64,000 bases of DNA from Phycisphaerae bacterium (GCA_022072445.1 JAJVHV010000030.1:5971-69970), one strand, 5' to 3'. Numbered from the stretch's first letter, positions 6,251-33,716 are shown. Translations and numbers: made by a program. Notes: generated by a model not told the origin, from the sequence alone.

Positions 6251-6602
6251 GACGGTACTCCTTTCCGCGAAAACGCCGCGGCGGCGGACGGGCGGCGGGC
6301 AGCGGGGGACCCAACCAAAGTCAGTCGAGGCCCGACCTCGATAGAATCCTCTCCTCAGTTCCGGCGGCAGAGCCACGGAATCGCCCCGGCCCGGTTCGCA
6401 GCGATCATATCGCGCGCCGCCGCAGGTCGGACAGGCTTTGGCAGCCAAACTTGCGCAATCTTGATCGAATGTGGATCGTCCCGTTCCGCCCCAAAACGAG
6501 CGGCGGCGGGACGTATCCCGCCGCCGCGTGGCTTTCACTCAGTTCCAGGCCGTCCGAGCCGGCCCGGCGATCGCCAGTCCCGGCCGAACGGCGTTGGCGT
6601 CG

Positions 6603-9653: not shown

Positions 9654-10451
9654 ATGGCCAAGAAAAAGGCGGCACGGAAAGTGAAGAAGGCGAAGAAAGC
9701 CAAGAAGGGACTCAAGAAAGTCGCGATCGCCAAGGCGAAAAAATCCGCCCGAAAGCGCGCAGCGCGGCCGAAGGCGACCCGAAGCTCCAGGCCCGCCACC
9801 GCCCGCAAGAGCGCCGGCCGCACCGTCAAGAAAGCCGCCGCGACGCGCGCCCCGGCGGCCGGCCGAGCCGCCAGCACGCGCGTCGTGAAGTCCGCCAGCG
9901 CGGCCGAAACACGCGTCGCCGCCCGTGCGCCCGTTCCCCCGAAGATCGCGCCGCTGACACCCGCGGTCGGCGAGCCCGCGCCCGACTTCGCGCTGCAGGA
10001 CGAGCGCGGCAACACGCGCACGCTCAGTGCCTATCGCGGCCGCACGCTGGTGCTCTATTTCTATCCCAAGGACGACACGCCCGGCTGCACGCTTGAAGCC
10101 TGCGCGTTTCGCGATGCGTCCTCCGAGTTCGACGCTCTGGCCGCCGCCATCGTCGGCGTCTCGCCCGACACGTCGGAGAGTCATGCGGCTTTCGCGCAGA
10201 AGTTCAGCCTGCCGTTCACGCTGCTGGCCGATCCCGACCATCGCGTCTGCGAGAAATACGGCGTGTGGCGCGAGAAGAATCTCTACGGCGAGACGCGGAT
10301 GGGCGTGGTGCGGACGACGTTCGTCATCGACGAGAACGGCCGCGTCGCGCAGGTCTTCGAGGGCGTCCGGCCCGACGGGCACGACCGTGAAGTGCTGACC
10401 TGGCTGCGCTCGCGCCAGCCCGCGCCCAGCATCGCCCCGAGCGGGTATTGA
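9654..10451 (+). CDS. bcp: Bcp-type peroxiredoxin with ~100-aa Lys/Ala-rich N-terminal extension
   Basis: Core GEPAPDFALQDERG..LVLYFYPKDDTPGCTLEAC..GVSPDT..LLADPDH. The N-terminus MAKKKAARKVKKAKKAKKGLKK.. is in the same frame with no stop. Confidence 0.85.
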   Translation: MAKKKAARKVKKAKKAKKGLKKVAIAKAKKSARKRAARPKATRSSRPATARKSAGRTVKKAAATRAPAAGRAASTRVVKSASAAETRVAARAPVPPKIAPLTPAVGEPAPDFALQDERGNTRTLSAYRGRTLVLYFYPKDDTPGCTLEACAFRDASSEFDALAAAIVGVSPDTSESHAAFAQKFSLPFTLLADPDHRVCEKYGVWREKNLYGETRMGVVRTTFVIDENGRVAQVFEGVRPDGHDREVLTWLRSRQPAPSIAPSGY

Positions 10452-12774: not shown

Positions 12775-13263
12775 CTACTCCGTCCGCACCTTGACGGTCT
12801 TCGGCTTGGCCCCGGCGCTCTTGCCGACGCGAATTGTCAGCACGCCGTCCTTGAATGACGCGTCGACGTCGTCGGCGTCCACGCCGCTCGGCAGGCGGAT
12901 ACTGCGCTGAAATCCGCCGAACTGCCGCTCGACGTAGTGGTAATTCTTCTGCTTCTCTTCGCGATCCGAGCGCTTTTCGCCGCGGACCGTCAGCACGTCG
13001 CCGCTGATCTCGACGTCGACGGCGTCTGGATTGACGCCCGGCAGCTCCATCGTGACCGTGACGGCGTCGGCCGTATCGGCCAGGTCGGTGCGCGGCATGG
13101 CGATCAAGTCCTCGTCGGCCTGCTCCCACGGCCAGGCGAACGGATCGCGCATGAAGCGCTCCAGGACGGACTCCATCTGGTCGCGCAGCAGCGACAGCGG
13201 CTGGTCAATCGGCGCCAGCGCGCTTCCTACCTCTCGCTTTCGTCTCCACGGAACGAGTTTCAT
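12775..13263 (-). CDS. Hsp20/alpha-crystallin family small heat-shock protein
   Basis: Alpha-crystallin domain: [39 protein letters not shown] ... [29 protein letters not shown]. Confidence 0.9.
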
Positions 13264-13348
13264 GTCGAACCTCCTTCCTCGTCAGTTCAGAACTGCGCTC
13301 CGGACAGCTCAGCCGGAGCATACGTCTGGTTCCTTGCGTGGTTGCATG

Positions 13349-13747
13349 TCACGTCGGCTTGACGGCAATCTTCCGCGGCCGAAGCGCGCGGACCTTCGGC
13401 AAATGAAGCGTCAGCACGCCGTCCTTCAGTTCGGCCTCGATCTTCTCGGCGTCAATTCCTTCGCCGATCGTGAAGGCACGATGAAAGTCCCCGACGCCGT
13501 ACTCGCGCCGCAGGTAGCGCGTTCCTGCTTCCTGCCGCGGCTTGACGGTGCCGCGGATCGTCAGTTCGCCGCGCTCGTAGCGCACGTCGACGCCCTCGCT
13601 GGATACGCCGGGCATGTCGGCCAGCAGCAGCAGCTCTTCGGGCGTCTCGACGATGTCAACGAAGGGCACGTAGGTCCGGCCAGCCTGCACGCGCTCGGGC
13701 TTGACGTCCTGGGCGCAGCACGCGTTGTTATTGTCATGTGTCGTCAT
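13349..13747 (-). CDS. Hsp20/alpha-crystallin family small heat-shock protein
   Basis: VDIVETPEELLLLADMPGVSSEGVDVRYERGELTIRG ... FHRAFTIGEGIDAEKIEAELKDGVLTLHLPK. Confidence 0.9.
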   Translation of the reverse strand: MTTHDNNNACCAQDVKPERVQAGRTYVPFVDIVETPEELLLLADMPGVSSEGVDVRYERGELTIRGTVKPRQEAGTRYLRREYGVGDFHRAFTIGEGIDAEKIEAELKDGVLTLHLPKVRALRPRKIAVKPT

Positions 13748-13795
13748 GGTAAATCTCTCCCGCGGGCGCGGCTTCGCCGCCGCCCGTTGTCCTGG

Positions 13796-14233
13796 TTAGT
13801 TGGTTCGCACCGTGATCTTCCGCGGCAGGGCCTCGGGCGACTTGGTCAGCCGCACGGTCAACACGCCGTCGCGCAGCGTCGCGTCGACGTGCTCCGGATC
13901 GACGCGGCAGGGCAGCGTCACGACGCGCGAGAACTCGCCGACGCCGCGCTCCCGTCGCTGATACGTCCGCTCGGCGCCGTCGTGCCGCTCGCGTGAGCCC
14001 TTGATGACGAGTTCGTCGCCGGCGGTGGTAATCTCCACGTCCTCGCGCCGCACGCCGGGGACTTCGGCCTCGATCATCACGCTCTGCTGATCTTCCCAGA
14101 CGTTGATGGCCGGGAACGTCGCCGCACCGCCGAGCTCCGTCGCGACCCGGAATCCGAGATCGTCGAAGAGCCGGCCCATCTGCCGCTGAAGATCGTCCAG
14201 CGGATTCCACAGCAGTGAATTCCTACGCAGCAT
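13796..14233 (-). CDS. Hsp20/alpha-crystallin family small heat-shock protein
   Basis: INVWEDQQSVMIEAEVPGVRREDVEITTAGDELVIKG ... FSRVVTLPCRVDPEHVDATLRDGVLTVRL. GGAAAGGAG Shine-Dalgarno upstream of the ATG. Confidence 0.9.
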   Translation of the reverse strand: MLRRNSLLWNPLDDLQRQMGRLFDDLGFRVATELGGAATFPAINVWEDQQSVMIEAEVPGVRREDVEITTAGDELVIKGSRERHDGAERTYQRRERGVGEFSRVVTLPCRVDPEHVDATLRDGVLTVRLTKSPEALPRKITVRTN

Positions 14234-14515: not shown

Positions 14516-16312
14516 ATGGACCCGGCCCGCATCCGCAACTTCTCGATCGTCGCGCACATCGACCACGGCAAGAGCACGCTCGCCGACCGCCTCCTGCAGC
14601 GCAGCGGCGCCGTGGCCGACCGCGACATGAAGGAGCAGATGCTCGATTCGATGGACCTGGAGCGCGAGCGCGGCATCACGATCAAAGCCAGCGCCGTCAC
14701 CATCTCGGTCACCGTCGACGGCCAGGAGCACATGCTCAATCTGATCGACACGCCCGGACACGTCGACTTTCATTACGAAGTGTCGCGGGCGCTGGCGGCG
14801 TGTGAAGGGGCGCTGCTCGTCGTCGACGCCACGCAGGGCGTCCAGGCCCAGACGGTGGCGAACGCCTACGCCGCCATCGCCGGCAACCTCGAGATCATCC
14901 CGGTGGTCAACAAGGTCGATCTGCCCGGCGCGCATCCGGAGGACACCGCCATCGAGATTGAGCACGTGCTGGGGATCGATTCCGGCCACGTGCAATTCGT
15001 GTCTGCCAAGACCGGCCTGGGGGTTGATGAGATGATTCGCGCGATCGTGCGGCACCTTCCGCCGCCGCGCGGCGACGCCGCGGCACCGCTTCAGGCGCTC
15101 GTATTCGACTCGATCTACGACGACTATCGCGGCGTGATCTGCTACATCCGGCTGTTCAACGGAACGATTCGCAAGGGGCAGAAGGTGCTGCTGATGGGCC
15201 GTGGGCGGCACTACGTGGTCACCGAGCTCGGCAAGCTCCGCCCGAAGATGTCGCCGATCGAGACGCTCGCCGCCGGCGAGGTCGGTTACGTCGTCGCGAA
15301 CATCAAGATGCTGCAGGACGTGACGGTGGGCGACACGATGACCGACGCGCTGACGCCGGCCGCCGAGCCGCTGCCGGGTTATCAGCCGCCCAAGCAGATG
15401 GTTTTCTGCGATTTTTATCCGGCGGGCGGGGAGGACTATTCGGAGTTGCGCGACGCACTGCAGCGGCTGAGCCTGAACGACGCGTCGTTCACGTTCGTCC
15501 CGGAGCACAGCGAGGCGCTCGGCTTTGGCTTCCGCTGCGGATTCCTGGGCCTGCTGCACATGGACATCGTGCAGGAGCGGCTGGAGCGGGAGGCGGGGAT
15601 CGACGTGGTGCAGACGGCGCCGTCGGTGACGTACGAAGTGCTGCTGAACGACGGCGCGCAGTTGCAGATCGACGCCGCCGGCGACCTGCCTTCGGCCGAC
15701 AAGTACCAGGAGCTGCGTGAGCCGATCGTCGAGGTGCAGTTGATTATTCCGGCCGACGCGGTGGGGGCGATCATGAAGCTGACCGAGCAGCGCCGCGGGG
15801 CCTACCGCAAGACCGAGTATCTTTCGACTTCGCGCGTGCTCATGACGTACCACATGCCCTTCAACGAGATTCTCTACGATTTCTATGACAAGCTCAAGAG
15901 CGTGACCCGCGGCTATGGGACGATGGACTACCACTTCATCGGCTACCAGGCCAGCGACCTGGTGAAGCTCGACATTCTGGTCAACAGCGTCGCCGTCGAC
16001 GCCCTTTCGGTCATTCTGCACCGCTCGAACGCCGAGCGCCGCGGGCGGCGCATCATCGCCCGCCTGCGTGAGGAGATCGACAAGCACCTGTTTGAAATTC
16101 CGCTTCAGGCCGCGATCGGCTCGCGCGTTATCGCCCGCGAGACCATCAAGGCCATGCGCAAGAACGTGACGGCGAAGTGCTATGGCGGCGACGTGACCCG
16201 CAAGCGCAAGCTGCTGGAGAAGCAGAAAGAGGGCAAGAAACGGATGAAGACGGTGGGGCGGGTGGATATTCCGCAGAAGGCGTTCATGACGGTGCTGGAG
16301 CCGGAGGAGTAG
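14516..16312 (+). CDS. lepA: elongation factor 4 (LepA)
   Basis: ORF 14237..16312; conserved start ATG 14516 (MDPARIRNFSIVAHIDHGKSTLADRLL). G-domain motifs DTPGH and NKVD. C-terminal LepA-specific [25 protein letters not shown]. Confidence 0.95.
   Translation: MDPARIRNFSIVAHIDHGKSTLADRLLQRSGAVADRDMKEQMLDSMDLERERGITIKASAVTISVTVDGQEHMLNLIDTPGHVDFHYEVSRALAACEGALLVVDATQGVQAQTVANAYAAIAGNLEIIPVVNKVDLPGAHPEDTAIEIEHVLGIDSGHVQFVSAKTGLGVDEMIRAIVRHLPPPRGDAAAPLQALVFDSIYDDYRGVICYIRLFNGTIRKGQKVLLMGRGRHYVVTELGKLRPKMSPIETLAAGEVGYVVANIKMLQDVTVGDTMTDALTPAAEPLPGYQPPKQMVFCDFYPAGGEDYSELRDALQRLSLNDASFTFVPEHSEALGFGFRCGFLGLLHMDIVQERLEREAGIDVVQTAPSVTYEVLLNDGAQLQIDAAGDLPSADKYQELREPIVEVQLIIPADAVGAIMKLTEQRRGAYRKTEYLSTSRVLMTYHMPFNEILYDFYDKLKSVTRGYGTMDYHFIGYQASDLVKLDILVNSVAVDALSVILHRSNAERRGRRIIARLREEIDKHLFEIPLQAAIGSRVIARETIKAMRKNVTAKCYGGDVTRKRKLLEKQKEGKKRMKTVGRVDIPQKAFMTVLEPEE
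16061..16312 (+). repeat. direct repeat copy A (lepA 3' end, part of the intact gene)
   Basis: 252 nt, matching 17507..17758 at 249/252 positions. The differences are at 16198, 16201 and 16211. Confidence 0.95.
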
Positions 16313-16350
16313 GCGGGCGTACTGTGCGATGTATCGGTGCAGGGAGGTGC

Positions 16351-16779
16351 GTGAATGAACCCGTCGGACTTCCTTATGATGCTGGCGGTGCTCCTTGGGC
16401 GGTTCTCGCGGTTCAGGTGCAGAAGTGGCTCGAGCTGCTTCGTGCGAGCAAACGTCGCCGTCACGAGCTCTTTCGGACTCTCATGACCACTCGAGCCAGT
16501 CGAATCTCACCGGCTCACGTCGAAGCCCTGAACATGATCGATCTAGACTTCGCCGCGGCTAACGACCGTGACAAAGCCGTTCGGATGCCTGGCGGGTCTA
16601 CCACGATCATTCGAACACGCCTGACGATGACAACGAATCGGTGGCCGGGCGATGAGCTGTTCGTCGAGCGCGGCAGCCGGCCCGCAGAGCACTGGCGATC
16701 CGAGGCAACGTAGGGCAGGGTGAACTGGAGCCAGGAGCGACGCTTCCTGAGCGCGGTAGAATAGTCTTGGAGAGTATCG
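16351..16779 (+). pseudogene. degraded ORF with apparent frameshifts (DUF6680-like by recollection)
   Basis: GTG 16351 follows GGGAGG. WAVLAVQVQKWLELLRASKRRRHELFRTLMTTRASRISPAHVEALNMIDLDF reads well. The protein-like sequence then continues in another frame (DAWRVYHDHSNTPDDDNESV from ~16575), returns (GDELFVE) and shifts again (GELEPGATLPERG). Confidence 0.35.
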
Positions 16780-17046
16780 ATGACCCTGCACATCCCGCTG
16801 ACGGCGGAATCGGAAGCCCGACTGCGCGAATACGCCGCCGCGGTCGGGAAGGACGTTACTAGCCTGGTTGCGGAGGCCATTGAGGAGAAGCTGTCCCTGC
16901 TCGACGGCGCGCGGGAAGCGCAACGGCGTCCGCGCACGACCGAAGAGTGGCTGGCGGAGTTCGACGCTTGGGTGGACAGCCACAAACCGGCCGGAAACGT
17001 CGCGGACGACAGCCGTGAGGGCATCTATGAGGGGCGCGGCGAGTGA
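16780..17046 (+). CDS. ribbon-helix-helix-type antitoxin (VapB-like)
   Basis: MTLHIPLTAESEARLREYAAAVGKDVTSLVAEAIEEKL RHH-like N-terminus. The stop overlaps the PIN gene start (GTGA at 17043-17046). Confidence 0.7.
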   Translation: MTLHIPLTAESEARLREYAAAVGKDVTSLVAEAIEEKLSLLDGAREAQRRPRTTEEWLAEFDAWVDSHKPAGNVADDSREGIYEGRGE

Positions 17047-17501
17047 GAACGCTGCTGGACACCAACGTGCTCGCGCGCATCATCCAGAAATCTCATCCGC
17101 AGCACGAGGCCGCGCGGCGTTCGGTGCGCATCCTGCGAGCGCGTGACGGCGAATTGTGCATCGTCCCGCAAGTGCTCTACGAACTGTGGGTCGTCTGCAC
17201 GAAACCGGCAGGCTCCAATGGGATCGGCCTCAGCATCGCGTCCACACGGGCCGAAATGGCGTCGATCCTGCGATTCACCACGCTGTTTCGCGACGAGCGG
17301 GCGATCTTTGAGCACTGGGACCGCCTGGTCGCCACGCACGACGTGAAGGGCAAGTCCGCTCACGACGCACGGCTGGTGGCCGCCATGTTGCGGCACAAGT
17401 TGACGCACATCCTCACCTTCAACACAGGTGATTTTCGCCGCTACCCAGAGATCGAAGTTCTAACGCCCGCAACGATTGTTAGCGACGCGAGCCGCGGATG
17501 A
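17043..17501 (+). CDS. vapC: PIN-domain ribonuclease toxin (VapC family)
   Basis: GTG start. Acidic PIN residues occur in [23 protein letters not shown] and FNTGDF. Confidence 0.85.
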
Positions 17502-17506
17502 AGGGA

Positions 17507-17758
17507 CGCCTGCGTGAGGAGATCGACAAGCACCTGTTTGAAATTCCGCTTCAGGCCGCGATCGGCTCGCGCGTTATCGCCCGCGAGACCATCAAGGCCA
17601 TGCGCAAGAACGTGACGGCGAAGTGCTATGGCGGCGACGTGACGCGGAAGCGCAAGTTGCTGGAGAAGCAGAAAGAGGGCAAGAAACGGATGAAGACGGT
17701 GGGGCGGGTGGATATTCCGCAGAAGGCGTTCATGACGGTGCTGGAGCCGGAGGAGTAG
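17507..17758 (+). pseudogene. lepA 3' fragment (direct repeat copy B)
   Basis: Encodes the last 83 codons of LepA ([16 protein letters not shown]...VLEPEE*) with no 5' part. ORF 17498..17758 gains a fortuitous ATG overlapping the PIN stop. Confidence 0.9.
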
Positions 17759-17815: not shown

Positions 17816-18046
17816 ATGGAAATGATGCCAGCCGAGCTTACGATCATCTACGAGCGCGGTGCCGAGGGTCGGTGGGTCGCAACCATCCCCGAAGTACCCG
17901 GCGCGTTCTCTCAGGGCAAGACCAAGGCCGAGGCCCGCGAGAACGTGTTGGACGCACTCAGCGAGTTGATGCTCGCGCGCCGAGATCGGGCGCTGCGAGA
18001 ACGCACCAGTTCCGGTGACGTCGAGACGGTGCCGCTGGCCGGTTAG
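17816..18046 (+). CDS. HicB-like (UPF0150) antitoxin-family protein, no HicA partner seen
   Basis: LTIIYERGAEGRWVATIPEVPGAFSQGKTKAEARENVLDALSELM matches the HicB N-terminal fold pattern. No DNA-binding C-terminal domain is present. Confidence 0.6.
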   Translation: MEMMPAELTIIYERGAEGRWVATIPEVPGAFSQGKTKAEARENVLDALSELMLARRDRALRERTSSGDVETVPLAG

Positions 18047-18204
18047 CGCTCCGCGGGTGGGTCGATCCTTCCCGCAGCAATTCGCAGCCTTGTTTGCGCA
18101 AATGTCGGACGAGCCTGGCGCGCTTCATACGTCCCTACATGGTCTCGCGGCTGCGGCGCGGCCTCTCGGCACCAGGACGCCTCCGCGCTGCTGCGCGCGG
18201 CAAC

Positions 18205-21366: not shown

Positions 21367-22365
21367 TCACCCGGCAGGTTCGCCGCACGAGCAGACCGGG
21401 GGCTCAGTCTGAATGAGCAGGCCAGTCGGCAGCGGCTCACCGCCAACGTCGGTTTCGAACAGCTCTGCCGCGAGGATGCGGTAGTTGCGCCCGTAGCGCT
21501 CGCACTCCGCGTCCGCCCACTCCAGCCCGAAGCCCAGCAATTGCCCGCTCGCCAGGTCGTCGGGCCAGCCCAGGCCGGCCGCCGAAAGCGGCAGGTCGAG
21601 CACGAGGAATATCTGCTCGCCATCAGACGGAACATCGACGACCAGATAGCGCTCGTCGCCAAAGGACTCGAGCGGCATCCCGGCCCGCAACCGGACGGCG
21701 GCCAGGCGGAAGACCTCGCATTCCCGCTGTCGGCCGGCGGACGCGGAAAACTCGGCGAGCACGAAGACGCGCAGTACGACCGGATTGCCGGGCCGATAGA
21801 CGTGCGGAATCGCGGCGCGCCAGCCAACCGGATACTCCAGCGTCGGGCTTGAAACGAGCAGCGCGTCGGCCGCGACCTGCCCTTCCTCCGCCGACGCACC
21901 CCGCGCGCCGCCGCGATTGTTCGGATCGCGCGGCGTTCCGTCGGCGCCGAGCGTGACGAAGTCGTCGATGAATACGTCAAAAAGCGGCGCAGCGCTCAGC
22001 CCTGGCGGACCTGGCTCGCCCGGCGGCCCCTGCTCACCGGGTGCCCCCGGTTCGCCCGGTGCTCCCGGCGGCCCAGCGGCACCGTCCTCGCCTTGCGGTC
22101 CCGATGGGCCGGCTGGCCCATCGGCGCCTGGAATGGCGCGCCCCGCCGCCTCCTCCAGTGCCTGATTCAGCTCGTCGTCGAACGCCTGGCGCTGGGCGTC
22201 GAGTGCCGCCAGTGCGATCAGCGCCGCGCCCGACGAGAACAGCAGATCGCGCCCATAATCCTGAAGAAAGAAAGCCGAACCGGGGCTGCATCCGACGCTG
22301 ACGCCGAACATCGCCGCCAGCGCGCAGAATCGGCGCCCGCGGCGGAATCGCCGCTTGTTTCGCAT
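21367..22365 (-). CDS. collagen-like triple-helix repeat lipoprotein with uncharacterised C-terminal domain
   Basis: ORF 21367..22461; probable start ATG 22365 ([26 protein letters not shown] lipobox). 14 uninterrupted G-X-Y triplets ([43 protein letters not shown], nt 22000-22128). Confidence 0.7.
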
Positions 22366-22503
22366 TCCATGCTCCGCAAGCCCGACAGGGTGACGGCAAA
22401 CCGGCGCCGATCGACGCCGGCGCCGCGAGATCTGAGCCCTCGCTGGAACTATAGGCGCCACCCAGGTGGGATCAAGCCGCGGCTGCCCTCGTGTGTTGAT
22501 TTT

Positions 22504-23457
22504 CTAGGACAGGTCAGTCGGCTTGCGGGCGGCGATCCAGAAATTGTCGCTGAGTGGATTCGCTTTCACCGAAATGACCTCGAATCCGACATTGACGATC
22601 AGGCGGCCAAGCGTCGCCGGTGAGAAGTATTGCACGTGCTCGGGCCAGCGATAACCCGACCAGCGTGCTCCGAGAACGCGGCGCAGCAGGCAGTCGTAAT
22701 TCGGCGTTTTGTGAACCGTCACGCCGCCCGGCCGCAGCAGCTCGAACAGCCGGCGCAACACCGGCGCGGGGCGCGGCTCGTGTTCCAGATAGCTGACGGT
22801 GACAGCCAGGTCGAACGAGCCGCGTTCAAGGTCGAAATCCGCCAGCCGGCCGCACAAGACGCGCTCCGCACCCATCCGCCGCGCGGCACGCGACGCCATC
22901 TTCGGCGACGGCTCGACGCCGATCGCGTCGTACCCCCAGCGCAGCGCCAGGGCCGGCAGGCGCCCGTCTCCGCAGCCGACGTCGATCATCCGCGCGCGGC
23001 GCGTGCCGCTTGGCACTTCGGTTCCGCTCGGCGCTGCGCGCGTGCCGCTGGGCGCTGCGCGCGTGGCGTGAAGCTCACTCGGCGTCGCGCCCAGGCTCCC
23101 GTCGACGGCGATGGTCGGCGGGGCGCTGCGGCGAATCCAGCGCAGGGCGCGCGCTTCGCGGCTGGGCTTCATGAAGAGCACGGACATCGTCCAAGCCCGC
23201 GCGAAGGGGTTGCGCATCCAGCGCTCCATCCGCTCGCGCTTGAACGACTCGCTCCACTCGAACTCGGTGTCGATCGCCTCGTCGGTCGGATACTCGGGCA
23301 TGTACGGCAGCCCGCAGCCGGCGCAGCCGACCAGCCGCCAGCGGTCGTGCCGCAGCAGTTCGGCGCCGCCGACAGCGTCGCACACAGGGCAGGGGCGCGA
23401 TTCGGTCCGTTCGGCGGAGTGCGCGTCGCCGGCCCTGATCGTGCGAGGCTCAGTCAT
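22504..23457 (-). CDS. class I SAM-dependent methyltransferase with N-terminal Zn ribbon
   Basis: ORF 22504..23475. ATG 23457 forms an ATGA overlap with the upstream stop. CPVCDA..CAGCG ribbon; motif I IDVGCGDGRL; LRPGGVTV. Confidence 0.8.
   Translation of the reverse strand: MTEPRTIRAGDAHSAERTESRPCPVCDAVGGAELLRHDRWRLVGCAGCGLPYMPEYPTDEAIDTEFEWSESFKRERMERWMRNPFARAWTMSVLFMKPSREARALRWIRRSAPPTIAVDGSLGATPSELHATRAAPSGTRAAPSGTEVPSGTRRARMIDVGCGDGRLPALALRWGYDAIGVEPSPKMASRAARRMGAERVLCGRLADFDLERGSFDLAVTVSYLEHEPRPAPVLRRLFELLRPGGVTVHKTPNYDCLLRRVLGARWSGYRWPEHVQYFSPATLGRLIVNVGFEVISVKANPLSDNFWIAARKPTDLS
23003..23065. repeat. 21-nt tandem repeat inside the methyltransferase gene
   Basis: ccgct(c/g)ggcgctgcgcgcgtg x2 plus a degenerate third unit. 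It encodes TRAAPSG-TRAAPSG-TEVPSG in a linker. Confidence 0.6.
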
Positions 23458-24101
23458 TCCGGCACCTCGCGCCACGTTCGCACCTCTGCGGCGACTGCTC
23501 CGAAGCCGACCGGGAACGCGTTCTCAAGCTCGCCTATAGTCCTCGCGACTCGCTCGCAATGCTCAACCGCGCATTTCGTTGCAAGCTCGAGCGAAGGACG
23601 ATCCGTACCGTAGACCGAGTTCTTGAGTTCACGCATCCGCGATCGCGCCGTCGTGCGTGCCCGTAAGTCCCGTATCCAGGCGACTTCCGTCGCGTGTGGA
23701 TCAATGCCGCAACGGTACCATGCTTCGATGGCAGGCATCGCCACACCGATGGCTACGCTGAACGGCGCGCGTCCGACGACATGCTTCAGCATGTCGCGCG
23801 TCTGGTGAACTTCCCGGCGTACTACGCAAAGTCGGCATCGGTCCGTCGCGCAATTTGCCGCAGGACCGCCTTCGTGTGGCGGCGACCCATTCGAATCAAC
23901 GACTACCACCAAACCTCGCACGTCGCTTTGATAGTACAGGGCGCGCATGACTCCTGGCAGCATCTGATACACGTTGGGCCAGCCACGCGCCCGAAAAGGT
24001 GGGTGCTCTGGCGGTTTTGTCGTCAATCCGAGGATCGCGTTTGCCAGAACGCGCAGTGCGGCTTCGTCGGCCGGGGATTCACTCAGAATTGCCACCTTCA
24101 T
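23454..24101 (-). CDS. small DUF4276/Toprim-like protein (partner of the upstream ATPase)
   Basis: ORF 23454..24140. ATG 24101 forms an ATGA overlap with the ATPase stop. MKVAILSESPADEAAL (acidic strand-helix), LVVVVDSNG, AMPAIEAWY. Confidence 0.6.
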   Translation of the reverse strand: MKVAILSESPADEAALRVLANAILGLTTKPPEHPPFRARGWPNVYQMLPGVMRALYYQSDVRGLVVVVDSNGSPPHEGGPAANCATDRCRLCVVRREVHQTRDMLKHVVGRAPFSVAIGVAMPAIEAWYRCGIDPHATEVAWIRDLRARTTARSRMRELKNSVYGTDRPSLELATKCAVEHCERVARTIGELENAFPVGFGAVAAEVRTWREVPE

Positions 24102-25090
24102 GGCCTGCTCGGAACGCCGCCGAGCACACCCGTGTACCACGCGTCGCCGAGCGGCGCCTGCTGCAATATCTCGTCAATGTCCGGCCGGTCAATGAGCCGG
24201 GTGAACCTCGCTTCAAGGTCATGCTTGTCGGCGATGACCACGCACTCGGGATACTCGCGGAAGAGATCAAGAAAGTAAGGCGAGTGCGTCGTGGCAAGCA
24301 CCTGGACAGCCGGCCGGGCCGCCCCAACGGATTCCGGATGGCACAGCCGGAAGATCGCGTCGCGGACGTCCCGAAGCAGACGCGGGTGCAATCCGCGATC
24401 GGGCTCTTCAAGGCAGACCAGCGGAGGCGGCTCGGGCAGGTGGCTGAGCAGCAGCAGCGCCAGCGCGATCAACGTGCCGTGAGACAGGTCCTCGGCGGCG
24501 ATCTGATGCTTGCCGCTCACAGTCCGAAGTGCAACCGATTTCGCGTTCTGCTTGGGAACCAACTGCACATAATCGTACTCCGGAAGCCAGCGCCGGACTT
24601 CGGCGACGAACGACTCGAAGTTTTCGGGATGCAGGTCCTTGAGATTGTCGATCACCGAAGCGAGCTTTTCGCCACGCTCACCAAGTTCCGGCGATGGCTC
24701 TACGCCAGACGGCTGCTTGAGGACTTGGGCCTCAAATGTGAATGCGCGGATTCGAGAGAAGAACTCCTGGACGTTCGGACTCAGTTGACCGCGACTGGCC
24801 TGAGGATCGACCCATGCTCCCTTCTCCGAACCGGTTTCCCAAACACGCCTGACGACGTTGGAGTCAGAGAGTCGGCACGAAATCTCAATGCCGCGCTTCG
24901 GCGCGCCAACGGAAGCGGATCCGCTCAGTGCCCTACTGACTTTGCCCGCGAGCGCGAGGATGCCATCGACGGCAGTCGACTTCCCGGCACCGTTGGGACC
25001 CACCAGTAACGTGAACGGCCCTAACGGCAGCGTCGTGTCGCGCAGAACGCGAAAGTTCTTGAAATCAATGGATTCGATTGAGAGTGCCAT
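24098..25090 (-). CDS. ABC/SMC-like AAA ATPase (AAA_21-type)
   Basis: IESIDFKNFRVL N-terminus. Walker A GPNGAGKS, signature-like LSHGT, Walker B LVCLEEPDRGLHP, H-loop ATTHSP. Confidence 0.85.
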   Translation of the reverse strand: MALSIESIDFKNFRVLRDTTLPLGPFTLLVGPNGAGKSTAVDGILALAGKVSRALSGSASVGAPKRGIEISCRLSDSNVVRRVWETGSEKGAWVDPQASRGQLSPNVQEFFSRIRAFTFEAQVLKQPSGVEPSPELGERGEKLASVIDNLKDLHPENFESFVAEVRRWLPEYDYVQLVPKQNAKSVALRTVSGKHQIAAEDLSHGTLIALALLLLSHLPEPPPLVCLEEPDRGLHPRLLRDVRDAIFRLCHPESVGAARPAVQVLATTHSPYFLDLFREYPECVVIADKHDLEARFTRLIDRPDIDEILQQAPLGDAWYTGVLGGVPSRP

Positions 25091-30946: not shown

Positions 30947-33055
30947 CTACGTCTTCCTGCCGCGGCCGTTATCCGCCGCCAGTGCCGTGTGCACCTCCTG
31001 TCGAATCCGCTCCGCACGCGCGTCGGCCGACGCGCCGCTCCGCGCCGGAGTCGCGCCGCCCGCGGCGGGCGGCCCAACCGACGCGACACCCAGGCGATCG
31101 CTGAGCAGCATGGTCAGCAGGGCTTCCATCACGTTGCTGCCGGCCATGCCAGACTTGCCGTCGCCCGCGCCGCCGCCGATCACCACCTTGGGCACCAGAT
31201 CGACGCCCGAGCGTTCGATCGCCTCGGCGAAACGCTCCATGACCTGCCGCGTGATCTGGAACTGCGGCCCGCCGTACGCCCGCACCTGCTCGTCGATCGC
31301 GATGGCCTGCGCCACGCCGATGCGGGCCGCCTTGTCCGCCTCGGCCTCGCCGACCGCGCGGATGCGCGTCGCTTCGCCGTCGGCCAGCGTGCGGATCTTG
31401 GCGGCTTCGGCTTCGGCGACGGCCCGCATCTGCGCCGCCTGTTGCAGGGCGCGCTGATACTCGGCCTTGCCCTGGTTTTCCTGGATGCGAATCGACACCT
31501 CGCTCTCGGTGAGGGCCTGCTGCTGGCTGGCCTTGGCCTCCGCCTCGCGCAGCTCGCGTTCCTTGACCGCGGCCTTCTCCTGCCGCGCGTAGGTCTCGAC
31601 CTGTTCCTCGGCGATTTGCCGCGTGCGGAGCTGGGTGAGGATGTTCTCGATCTTGTTGTCGCCGGCTGACGACGTCGGCGTGCCGATCAGCACCTCTTCG
31701 AGTTCGAGGTTGTAGTGCGCGAACTTCTCGCGCATCTCCTCGCCCGCGAGCTTCTGGATCAGCGCGCGATCCTGCAGGAGTTGAATGAGCGTTCGCGTCT
31801 GGCCGATGTTCTTGAAATACGCCGAGACCATCGGGTCGAGCGTCTGCTCGACCAGCCGCTTGACGTCGCCGAAGCGCTGAATGACCAGCGGCGCCTTGCG
31901 GTAGTCGATGTGCACCACGACGCTGAGCGGCAGCGACGGCTCAAAGGCGTCCTTGGTGATCAGCGAGACTTCGCGCAGGTTCTCGTCGAACTTGTGCATC
32001 CCGCTCTCGTTGCGGATCCACTTCAGGATGAAATTCGTCGTTGGCACCGGGATGACGTGCCCGGCATACGTGTTGAACGCGTATTTGCCGGGCAGCAACG
32101 CCTCGCTCCAGACGCCGCGCTGCCCCGGTTTTACCAGCTCGCCGTGCTTGTATTCGACGCCGGACAGGTCGGCGCCACGCTCGCCTGTGTACGAGACGAC
32201 CACGCCGACGTTGCCGACGTCGATGACAGTCTTGGGCAGCATCTCCACCGTCGCGAACAGCCGGTTGAGATAATACGTGCCGTCGACGAGCACCTGGAGC
32301 TGCCGGCCCCGGCTTCCGCCGGCGGCCAGGAACACCTCGATGTCCTGGAAGTTGTTGTGAAACGTCGACGGGACGTCCGGGGAATTGCCCACAACGGGGG
32401 CGATGATCTCGCCGGCCGGCAGCGCCGGCCCGTCATGAACGGTGATGACGCCGATCATGTCGTCGCTGCCGCGGATCACGACCGGTTCGAAGCCGTTGCG
32501 ATTCCCGATCTCCGCCTGCATGCTCTGAAAGACCGCCTTGTCGTCGCGCTCCAGCGGCAGGTAGTAGAGCTGATCGTCGGTAACGACCGCGAACTGCGCC
32601 AGGTTGATCGCATACGTGCCTTCGCGCAGCAACTTGCGCTGCGGCCCACGCTGCCCGCCGTCCGCCAGAAAGCCGCGCACGTCCTCGAAATTCTGCGCCT
32701 TGACGTTGCACGCCAGCGTCTGCGTCGGCGGCAGCGGGTGCCCGTCACGGGCATACACGTAGCCGATCTGCCCCTGCGGGATCGTCACCAGCGGCAGCAG
32801 ATGCACGCGATACTGAAACGGCGTCAGAAAATGCAGCCCGCCGCGCAGCACGTCCGGTTGAAAGCCGGCTTCGCCGCGCAGCGCGATCAGCCCCTGACGC
32901 ACCGAGCCGCTGTGGCTCCAGAGCCGCTCGACGATGCCGACCCGGCGGTTCGGAATGTACCGAATACCGCTTAGACCGGTGAGCAAGACCAGGACCACAG
33001 CGAGCACAATCGCGCCCACGACCATGGTCGTAACGTCGATGGCTCCGAGTAACAT
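30947..33055 (-). CDS. SPFH/band-7 (flotillin-like) membrane scaffold protein
   Basis: ORF 30947..33115; probable start ATG 33055 (MLLGAIDVTTMVVGAIVLAVVLVLL anchor). SPFH core, then an Ala/Glu-rich coiled coil AEAEAAKIRTLADGEATRIRAVGEAEADKAARIGVAQA. Confidence 0.85.
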   Translation of the reverse strand: MLLGAIDVTTMVVGAIVLAVVLVLLTGLSGIRYIPNRRVGIVERLWSHSGSVRQGLIALRGEAGFQPDVLRGGLHFLTPFQYRVHLLPLVTIPQGQIGYVYARDGHPLPPTQTLACNVKAQNFEDVRGFLADGGQRGPQRKLLREGTYAINLAQFAVVTDDQLYYLPLERDDKAVFQSMQAEIGNRNGFEPVVIRGSDDMIGVITVHDGPALPAGEIIAPVVGNSPDVPSTFHNNFQDIEVFLAAGGSRGRQLQVLVDGTYYLNRLFATVEMLPKTVIDVGNVGVVVSYTGERGADLSGVEYKHGELVKPGQRGVWSEALLPGKYAFNTYAGHVIPVPTTNFILKWIRNESGMHKFDENLREVSLITKDAFEPSLPLSVVVHIDYRKAPLVIQRFGDVKRLVEQTLDPMVSAYFKNIGQTRTLIQLLQDRALIQKLAGEEMREKFAHYNLELEEVLIGTPTSSAGDNKIENILTQLRTRQIAEEQVETYARQEKAAVKERELREAEAKASQQQALTESEVSIRIQENQGKAEYQRALQQAAQMRAVAEAEAAKIRTLADGEATRIRAVGEAEADKAARIGVAQAIAIDEQVRAYGGPQFQITRQVMERFAEAIERSGVDLVPKVVIGGGAGDGKSGMAGSNVMEALLTMLLSDRLGVASVGPPAAGGATPARSGASADARAERIRQEVHTALAADNGRGRKT

Positions 33056-33716
33056 GACTGGCACTCCTTTTCTCAAGCGTGCGAACGCGGCGACGCCCGG
33101 CCGCGCGATCCGCACCGAGGGTCTCGGCGCAGGGCTGCGCCGTCGACCGGTTCAATGCTGGTTCCATACCGCTTCGGCGCCGGGCGCGGCGCCGATCGGT
33201 AGTCGTTACGCACAATGCTCGTGCGCATGCTAATACTGCCGTCGGTGTAGGTTACGTCGAGGGAGGCGGGCTCATGGTTGCTCCAGCGGTCGCCTGCGAG
33301 GTTAGCTGACGGGCGCGCTGCGCTGATTCAGCGTCCGGCTCCGGCCGGATTAGCCCCTGCGTCGCGGGCCTTGTGCCCGCGCCGCGCTGGGTTCCCCGCT
33401 GCCAGGCCGCCTGGGGCAGCCCGACATTCGGCACAAACAGCATGTATTAGAGTAAGTATAGCACAGGTTTGGCCGACTGGCCGGCCGATAACGCGCGCAC
33501 ACGCGCTCGGTACCGTTTTCATTCGACCAGATCCCGGCAAGTATCCAGCAGATCGCGGGAATCCAACCTAACTCCGAAGACTCGCCAGGCTCGATCGGTA
33601 GAGCCATCTCACGAAAGTATCCTCTCGCGAAGCGCCGGAAGTGAAGGCCGAATCGCAGCCAGTGCCAGTAGTCGGCCACCGTGAGCATCGACTGACGCTG
33701 CCAGAATTCGCCGAAG

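Follow-up and report, generated by a model that had tools for sequence, protein, structure and literature searches.

How did the 3′ end of a translation gene come to be present twice on one chromosome, with a toxin–antitoxin pair between the copies, and what keeps the copies nearly identical? The question is posed by lepA in a 64,000-nt stretch of DNA from a Phycisphaerae bacterium (GCA_022072445.1 JAJVHV010000030.1:5971-69970; "the window" denotes this whole stretch), an ordinary piece of chromosome from a metagenome-assembled genome (MAG), on a contig of 207,637 nt. The answer we favor, with a probability of roughly 0.55, is an old Campbell-type, integrase-less VapBC cassette anchored on the lepA 3′ end, whose repeats still recombine with the live gene. 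The argument depends on the following features, given in window coordinates; RHH denotes ribbon-helix-helix.

14516..16312, + strand: intact lepA (EF4), 598 aa, with Pfam domains GTP_EFTU, GTP_EFTU_D2, EFG_C, and LepA_C
16061..16312, + strand: repeat copy 1, the 252-nt 3′ terminus of lepA with its TAG stop, matching 17507-17758 at 249/252 positions
16198..16211, + strand: cluster of the three differences between the copies (copy-2 counterparts 17644, 17647, and 17657)
16355..16713, + strand: decayed DUF6680 gene (Pfam PF20385, E = 2e-18; Pfam-matching part ~16402-16584)
16780..17046, + strand: RHH/RelB-like antitoxin, 88 aa (weak PSK_trans_fac and RelB-like hits, below curated cut-offs)
17043..17501, + strand: VapC-type PIN toxin, 152 aa (Pfam PIN, E = 2.6e-11, above cut-off)
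17481..17506, + strand: diverged lepA-derived junction, approximately lepA nt 1520-1545 (17/26 matches to 16035-16060), covering the PIN stop
17507..17758, + strand: repeat copy 2, an orphan lepA 3′ fragment (Pfam LepA_C profile positions 28-106 of 107)

The duplication itself had been described in an earlier reading of this DNA (hereafter the sequence-only reading), and we reproduced it exactly: The copies are offset by 1446 nt and identical at 249 of 252 positions (98.8%), a match that is not attributable to chance. Homology of the orphan copy to lepA stops exactly at the TAG, and no third copy occurs in the 64-kb window. The three mismatches—16198 (ACC/ACG, Thr), 16201 (CGC/CGG, Arg), and 16211 (CTG/TTG, Leu)—are each synonymous and lie within 14 nt, as that reading had also stated and as all three codon pairs confirm. 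Clustering of this kind inside 14 of 252 nt has P = 0.007 if differences fall at random, and synonymy of all three has P = 0.013 to 0.055, according to whether the model treats one copy as constrained or not. The intact gene carries the states common in relatives, and the orphan has ACG, CGG, and TTG at the three differing codons; TTG is rare in the window (6% of Leu codons). The cluster lies just 3′ of the motif GGCGGCGACGTGAC. No record of the exact window LepA protein was found in the contig index searched.

Between the copies lie 1,194 nt (16313-17506), for which a degraded open reading frame (ORF) and an RHH/PIN pair had been proposed; these correspond to the DUF6680 remnant and an intact RHH/VapC(PIN) pair. 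The remnant covers N-terminal profile positions 17-75 of 170 only, with at least one frameshift to its likely start at 16355. The 3′ end of the antitoxin ORF overlaps the PIN start by 4 nt. The toxin carries the name VapC in its NCBI record, its acidic residues D6, E47, D108, and D130 are invariant across 24 homologs, and its NCBIfam VapC subfamily match reaches 53.6 bits, below the 73.6-bit cut-off. The PIN domain and conserved acidic residues fit a predicted type II VapBC toxin. Its stop codon, said earlier to abut the repeat, is indeed close (17499-17501, 6 nt before the high-identity repeat), but a weaker lepA-like stretch crosses it: The final PIN codons and the stop come from old lepA-derived sequence read out of frame.

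This junction recurs in three other loci, L082, L084, and L173; like the window, they belong to Phycisphaerae-type genomes, and identity among the LepA proteins is no more than 77-81%. Downstream of lepA, L084 carries an unrelated 195-aa membrane ORF and then RHH, PIN, a lepA 3′ fragment, and an MNT/HepT pair. The L082 array runs from lepA through a small two-gene unit, a 133-nt lepA fragment, and a 240-aa gene on the opposite strand to an RHH-PIN pair fused to a proximal lepA fragment, and ends with DUF2442. Within the two-gene unit, one ORF weakly matches the YgiT zinc finger (E = 0.0076); a by-eye MqsR-like identity for the 107-aa ORF was dropped, since it found no library support and the partner ORF alone has the YgiT hit. 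In L173, a PIN fused to a lepA fragment (aa 517-573; fragment A) is followed by DUF433, an antitoxin, and an unrelated second PIN, itself fused to a second lepA fragment (aa 498-598; fragment B), and then by MNT; the downstream MNT is conserved between L084 and L173.

In the window, L082, L084, and L173 alike, lepA homology at the first PIN starts at lepA nt ~1516-1525, 5′ of the PIN stop, and the terminal codons and stop of that PIN are out-of-frame lepA sequence. These four PINs form one clade in a neighbor-joining (NJ) tree, which, like the other NJ trees here, carries no support values. The closest PIN homologs are 61-65% identical to the window PIN, and the antitoxin ORF, kept together with PIN in all relatives, is 65-71% identical to the L084 and L082 antitoxins. 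Because the junction is common to PINs that are only 61-72% identical, the PIN::lepA′ junction is old. The sequence-only reading had taken the locus for an insertion that supplied a replacement lepA 3′ end: The displaced 3′ copy stands and recurs in the three other loci, whereas the freshness of the event does not. That reading's description of lepA as essential was an assumption.

The conserved part of these loci is small. DUF6680 does not keep its position in related loci, and a lepA-to-RHH gene was ruled out as a conserved element part, its place being taken by the DUF6680 pseudogene in the window, the membrane ORF in L084, and others in L082. Among the carriers compared, no nucleotide conservation was found upstream of the RHH start. 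The unrelated lepA–RHH spacers and this lack of conservation delimit the conserved unit as RHH-PIN::lepA′.

Not every close PIN homolog is linked to lepA: P0005, P0006, P0009, P0010, P0011, and P0012 sit elsewhere, and the neighbors of sister PINs outside the lepA setting are an M20 peptidase downstream, an EF-G-like gene upstream, or DUF2442/UPF0175 alongside. As a separate observation, L174 (1-1500; also L175-L178) carries RHH-PIN 40 nt downstream of an EF-G-like gene (EFG_IV, EFG_C) with no repeat; these PINs are 59-60% identical and make a second tie of this toxin–antitoxin family to a translational GTPase gene. Duplication of the 3′ end is likewise not a general trait of lepA loci, being present in 1 of 78 diverse loci (L016). 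A phage or viral origin was rejected, with PIN relatives absent from viral contigs and no phage match to the cassette DNA, and so was a plasmid origin, plasmid PIN relatives being at most 52% identical (cyanobacterial, Deinococcus, and one planctomycete plasmid).

If the junction is old, why is the repeat so young? The fragments in the other loci are mosaics of different ages. In L084, the proximal 80 nt of the fragment match the lepA of that genome at 81% identity; beyond a 76-nt deletion, the distal part agrees with it at 129/129 positions, although those 129 nt are 94-95% identical to the lepA of other genomes. The deletion is flanked by two GGCGGCGA microhomologies (L084 4833-4900 vs. 6512-6519). 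The proximal fragment of L082, next to PIN, is frameshifted and shows 82% identity; the separate distal 133-nt fragment is 96% identical, its homology beginning at the GGCGGCGACGTGAC motif. The motif at the L084 deletion breakpoints also marks the start of this 133-nt fragment, and GC-rich microhomology appears to be a preferred breakpoint.

Older fragments decay by nonsynonymous change and truncation, as the two in L173 illustrate. Fragment A is truncated. Fragment B has six amino acid changes in its final 31 residues, five of them at positions identical in the 12 LepA proteins compared; the changes include the KQKEGKK motif, which among those 12 is altered by L001 alone, at one position.

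The window fragment agrees with the lepA of its own genome at 98.8% of positions, and with that of the other genomes at no more than 89%. This is the pattern of concerted evolution: Copies are closer within a genome than between genomes, and the identical tract in L084 is bounded by a deletion. Decayed and recently reset parts within one old junction require recombination between the copies, and with an old junction the 98.8% identity reflects later recombination or gene conversion with the live gene, or re-integration within the lineage. Resetting could proceed by gene conversion bounded by heterologies or by excision and re-integration in the same lineage.

The exchange appears to reach the live gene as well. 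Over the last 133 nt of lepA, three carriers (the window, L082, and L084) are 93-95.5% identical to one another, compared with 73-78% over the first 1,545 nt and with 84-86.5% between carriers and L001 over the same 133 nt. We compared the share of identical codons, at conserved residues only, in nt 1669-1794 with that in the first 1,545 nt. The distal excess was strongest for the window and L082 (35/40 identical codons vs. 0.59 in the body; P = 8e-5), followed by L084 and L082 (34/40 vs. 0.63; P = 2e-3) and the window and L084 (32/40 vs. 0.64; P = 0.02). No pair involving the noncarrier L001 was significant, and L001 branches within the carrier group in an NJ tree built on the LepA body. This unusual synonymous-site similarity fits a cassette that supplies or exchanges the lepA 3′ end and agrees with the earlier proposal to that effect.

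On the reading we favor, RHH-PIN DNA would have been joined to lepA at nt ~1520 in an ancestor of this Phycisphaerae lineage. The join would have been illegitimate and microhomology-prone, which accounts for a toxin ORF that ends inside out-of-frame lepA sequence. One crossover at the lepA 3′ end with a molecule that was circular or anchored would then have yielded intact lepA, cargo, RHH-PIN, and a displaced 3′ copy; like events with other left boundaries would have added other small cassettes at the same end, giving short arrays punctuated by lepA fragments. Continuing contact between the two lepA copies, to which the mosaics point, would reset the orphan to the resident sequence and would also pass sequence into the live gene, leaving carriers with similar 3′ ends. 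The driver may be RecA-type recombination or a recombinase acting in trans; site-specific insertion is improbable.

The same repeats would allow recombination to remove the cassette cleanly, and loss of the antitoxin should then poison the segregants, given the predicted toxin. Addiction to the toxin–antitoxin pair thus plausibly opposes repeat-mediated loss. Selection of this kind against deletants would explain why the arrays are rich in toxin–antitoxin pairs (VapBC twice, MNT/HepT, HicB, DUF2442).

Several points weigh against this account. RHH and PIN have diverged between carriers about as far as host genes have, and vertical inheritance plus local gene conversion, with no transfer at all, could therefore be enough to account for most of the observations. 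The 3′-end excess amounts to 40 codons per pair in three genomes, and the NJ trees lack support values. A recombinase elsewhere in the genome is possible, the search having covered the 64-kb window. No same-species genome was found with an empty site that would show mobility in this lineage. An empty site in relatives had been proposed as a check. L001, the closest LepA in the species-level genome set (79% identical; the rest at most 63%), has a lepA without the cassette; its immediate downstream neighbor is a DUF2442 gene with 62% identity to the one at the far end of the L082 array, and it so resembles an empty site for that array. By the same 62% figure it is only empty-site-like, and it belongs to a different genus-level lineage; LepA of the window is 77-81% identical in amino acids to those of L084, L082, and L001.

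Two further loci bear on how cassettes arrive. L016 (Pyrinomonadaceae MAG, 9803-10412) has a 23S_rRNA_IVP gene (PF05635) right after the lepA stop and then the terminal 74 nt of lepA once more, 86% identical; from its sequence we read it as an independent small insertion with 3′-end duplication in another phylum. L167 (2065-7287) is a mirror image, in which a decayed lepA 5′ fragment, extended by ~75 nt of upstream sequence, comes after RHH-PIN and before a DEAD/Helicase_C/MZB helicase, a 222-aa gene, and then intact lepA; the duplicated 5′ parts (~1 kb) are 86% identical at the start and fall to 71%. In the alignment of carriers, all lepA repeats end precisely at the lepA stop. On the left, the fragments start at aa 498 (second PIN of L173), at nt ~1520, at nt ~1669, or only with the last 74 nt (L016); counting the first L082 fragment, L173 fragment B, L016, and L167 brings the number of different left boundaries to five.

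An unlikely alternative is a site-specific element like the cis-mobilizable elements (CIMEs), with the lepA 3′ end having given rise to attL and attR. A recombinase of the tyrosine or serine type, supplied from elsewhere in the genome or by a helper element, would integrate it, excise it, and stack it in tandem. It would account for direct repeats that end exactly at the stop codon, here a 252-nt repeat of the sort expected of an integrative element; for tandem cassettes each followed by a lepA fragment, which resemble accretion at att sites (L082, L173); for a distal 133 nt nearly identical among carriers; and for two independent boundaries at the same GGCGGCGACGTGAC motif, with the window differences just 3′ of it. 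But that motif is a stretch of GC-rich microhomology at which a simple deletion in L084 also ends, the repeats (133-303 nt) greatly exceed the typical att core length, and no single core site accounts for the duplication of ~1 kb at the 5′ end. The left boundaries (aa 498, nt ~1520, nt ~1669, last 74 nt) differ between cassette types, which argues against one site-specific core, and no fixed crossover point common to independent insertions was found among the loci compared. The five boundaries instead fit single crossovers with molecules bearing different lepA pieces.

Nor was an enzyme found. The sequence-only reading had noted the absence of an integrase, and our scan concurs: No integrase, transposase, resolvase, or other recombinase domain, and hence no cognate integrase of an integrative element, occurs among ~50 ORFs across the 64-kb window, and no recombinase was found in the called genes of L082, L084, and L173 or in those flanking L016. 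No tRNA gene lies in the window, and a tRNA or transfer-messenger RNA target or a structured RNA in the repeat was ruled out, the sole Rfam hit being an unrelated riboswitch. Terminators or promoters were likewise rejected as a cause of the repeat, with nothing above chance.

Comparison with known systems sharpens these differences. CIMEs and tandem accretion at conserved-gene 3′ ends are documented for ICESt1/ICESt3-related elements (integrative and conjugative elements, ICEs) at fda and for tandems of CIMEs with integrative and mobilizable elements (IMEs) (PMC5704250). The lepA cassettes are like CIMEs in being small, lacking integration genes, leaving the target gene intact, and forming tandem units that each carry the repeat (L082, L173). 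Unlike CIMEs, they were seen with no cognate integrase or parent ICE or IME, their repeats are 74-303 nt long rather than a short core, their left boundaries vary, and some repeats are 99-100% identical to the resident gene while the older part has decayed. The full-text literature searched held no relevant report of lepA as an attachment site.

Tandem ssrA islands in Dehalococcoides have 20-bp repeats, a defined T-loop insertion point, and a conserved serine-recombinase module, dsiB; some of their units have no integration module and are perhaps fixed (PMC3146451). There, as here, an array follows a single-copy translation-related gene and is punctuated by repeats of its 3′ end. Unlike ssrA, lepA is protein-coding, and its repeats are long and variable and come with no recombinase.

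A more novel reading, tentative and unlikely, makes the lepA 3′ end in these Phycisphaerae the homology anchor of a mobile, integrase-independent cassette family, whose small circles of cargo with a lepA tail would enter and leave by RecA-type single crossovers. Such circles would overwrite the host 3′ end and pile up as a lepA-punctuated array, addiction selecting the survivors. If such a family exists, it would parallel integron or CIME arrays while using no recombinase of its own kind. As for an integron cassette array proper, no integrase was found in the window, and the cassettes are bounded by lepA fragments; no dedicated attC search was run.

Less likely again is a static segmental duplication beside a resident toxin–antitoxin pair, inherited vertically, never mobile, and kept identical by gene conversion. 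The old junction common to one PIN clade, PIN and RHH divergence of the same order as host divergence, the conserved downstream MNT in L084 and L173, and the fact that every young fragment is nearest its own genome's lepA all suit it. It leaves unexplained, however, the unrelated cassettes that also end in lepA fragments at other boundaries, the excess synonymous identity of carrier lepA 3′ ends, and L001, which is nested among carriers yet has neither the cassette nor a carrier-type 3′ end.

The orphan copy might instead be a working gene, encoding an 86-aa LepA C-terminal peptide translationally coupled to the VapC stop (ATGA). We think this very improbable, and give no better odds to a role for the peptide alongside the toxin–antitoxin pair, such as that of a modulator or decoy binding ribosomes or tRNA. 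In its favor, the 86-aa ORF (17498-17758) is unbroken, with an ATG overlapping the PIN stop; fragment B of L173 likewise forms a 96-aa ORF, which begins across the stop codon of a different PIN; and seven of eight differences in young fragments are synonymous (window 3/3, first L082 fragment 4/5). Yet the fragment is frameshifted or truncated in L084, in the second L082 fragment, and in fragment A of L173, and fragment B has its six substitutions near the end. The ATG is left over from a Met/Ile codon context in native lepA, and recombination between functional alleles accounts equally well for the synonymous bias. The orphan copy is most likely nonfunctional.

That a single lepA 3′ end was doubled by a mis-joined separate or circular cassette contig is scarcely credible: The source is a short-read MAG and a unitig graph alone cannot tell A-R-C-R-D from A-R-D plus a circular R-C, that is, a tandem layout from an empty site plus circle, but both inner junctions were recovered in an independent assembly, the three differences let the copies be distinguished, and three other assemblies share the architecture with copies too diverged for collapse or mis-joining, and on these grounds we rejected the artefact. 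The independent evidence is Logan unitig L081 (SRR10609163, 2 samples), whose 1,254 nt equal window 16283-17536 exactly and carry the exact PIN protein. It takes in the whole cassette, flanked on either side by k-1 = 30 nt of repeat, and thus places both inner repeat junctions in that assembly.

Two other known systems come close to this one. The tufA and tufB genes of Salmonella are duplicated translation genes that undergo RecA-dependent gene conversion and evolve in concert. The lepA copies resemble them in that within-genome identity (98.8-100%) exceeds between-genome identity and the identical tract in L084 is bounded by heterology. Unlike the tuf genes, one lepA partner is a 252-nt nonfunctional fragment, in direct orientation and 1.2 kb from the live gene, an arrangement in which the same recombination can delete the intervening cassette.

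Stabilizing toxin–antitoxin cassettes are known from Vibrio superintegrons, from SXT (mosAT), and from SGI1 (sgiAT). The lepA locus is similar in placing a type II pair inside a segment removable by recombination between flanking repeats, and addiction would be a natural explanation for the persistence of such a pair. It differs from the superintegron, SXT, and SGI1 cases in that no integron integrase or ICE backbone was seen and the segment is little more than the toxin–antitoxin pair and a dead gene.

If the favored reading is right, a conserved housekeeping gene serves as a landing pad for accessory cassettes without a dedicated recombinase, and each landing leaves a datable scar, the gene fragment, behind its cassette. 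The locus would also be a natural setting for the idea that toxin–antitoxin pairs persist by blocking repeat-mediated deletion. The case also cautions against taking near identity of a repeat as proof of recent insertion, since recombination with the live gene keeps the repeat young at a junction that is old. In practice, such repeats break short-read assemblies at lepA and produce spurious small "LepA_C" genes in annotations.

After the orphan copy come a HicB-like ORF, a reductase, a glycosyltransferase, and, further on, initiation factor 2 (IF-2), RbfA, and MetH. The first of these is:

17816..18046, + strand: HicB/UPF0150-like antitoxin ORF after the orphan copy (weak Pfam UPF0150 and HicB_lk_antitox hits)

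Its position is held by MNT/HepT or DUF2442 in related loci, and on its domain matches it reads as the next unit of a small toxin–antitoxin islet. A 56-aa ORF on the − strand (17958-18128), convergent with and overlapping it, has no Pfam or NCBIfam match; by eye, its first ~24 residues are HicA-like. Together the two ORFs (17816-18128) are probably a decayed HicAB pair.

Elsewhere in the window are genes for a CHASE2-domain adenylate/guanylate cyclase, an orotidine monophosphate decarboxylase-family (pyrF-like) protein, and, by eye, an ORF resembling adenosine phosphosulfate kinase (cysC). Directly upstream of lepA and divergent from it, three tandem ORFs on the − strand (12775-14233; 162, 132, and 145 aa) are by eye Hsp20-like (alpha-crystallin). 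A c-di-AMP riboswitch (33276-33443, − strand; Rfam RF00379, 42.4 bits, above the gathering score) precedes an SPFH/Band 7 gene (30947-33115). On the same strand, a 228-aa ORF without a Pfam hit comes after, and overlaps, the gene for an AAA_21/AAA_15 ATPase (24098-25090); the two (23454-25090) may form a two-gene defense pair. A 364-aa ORF at 21367-22461 (− strand) contains a collagen-like stretch of G-x-y repeats.

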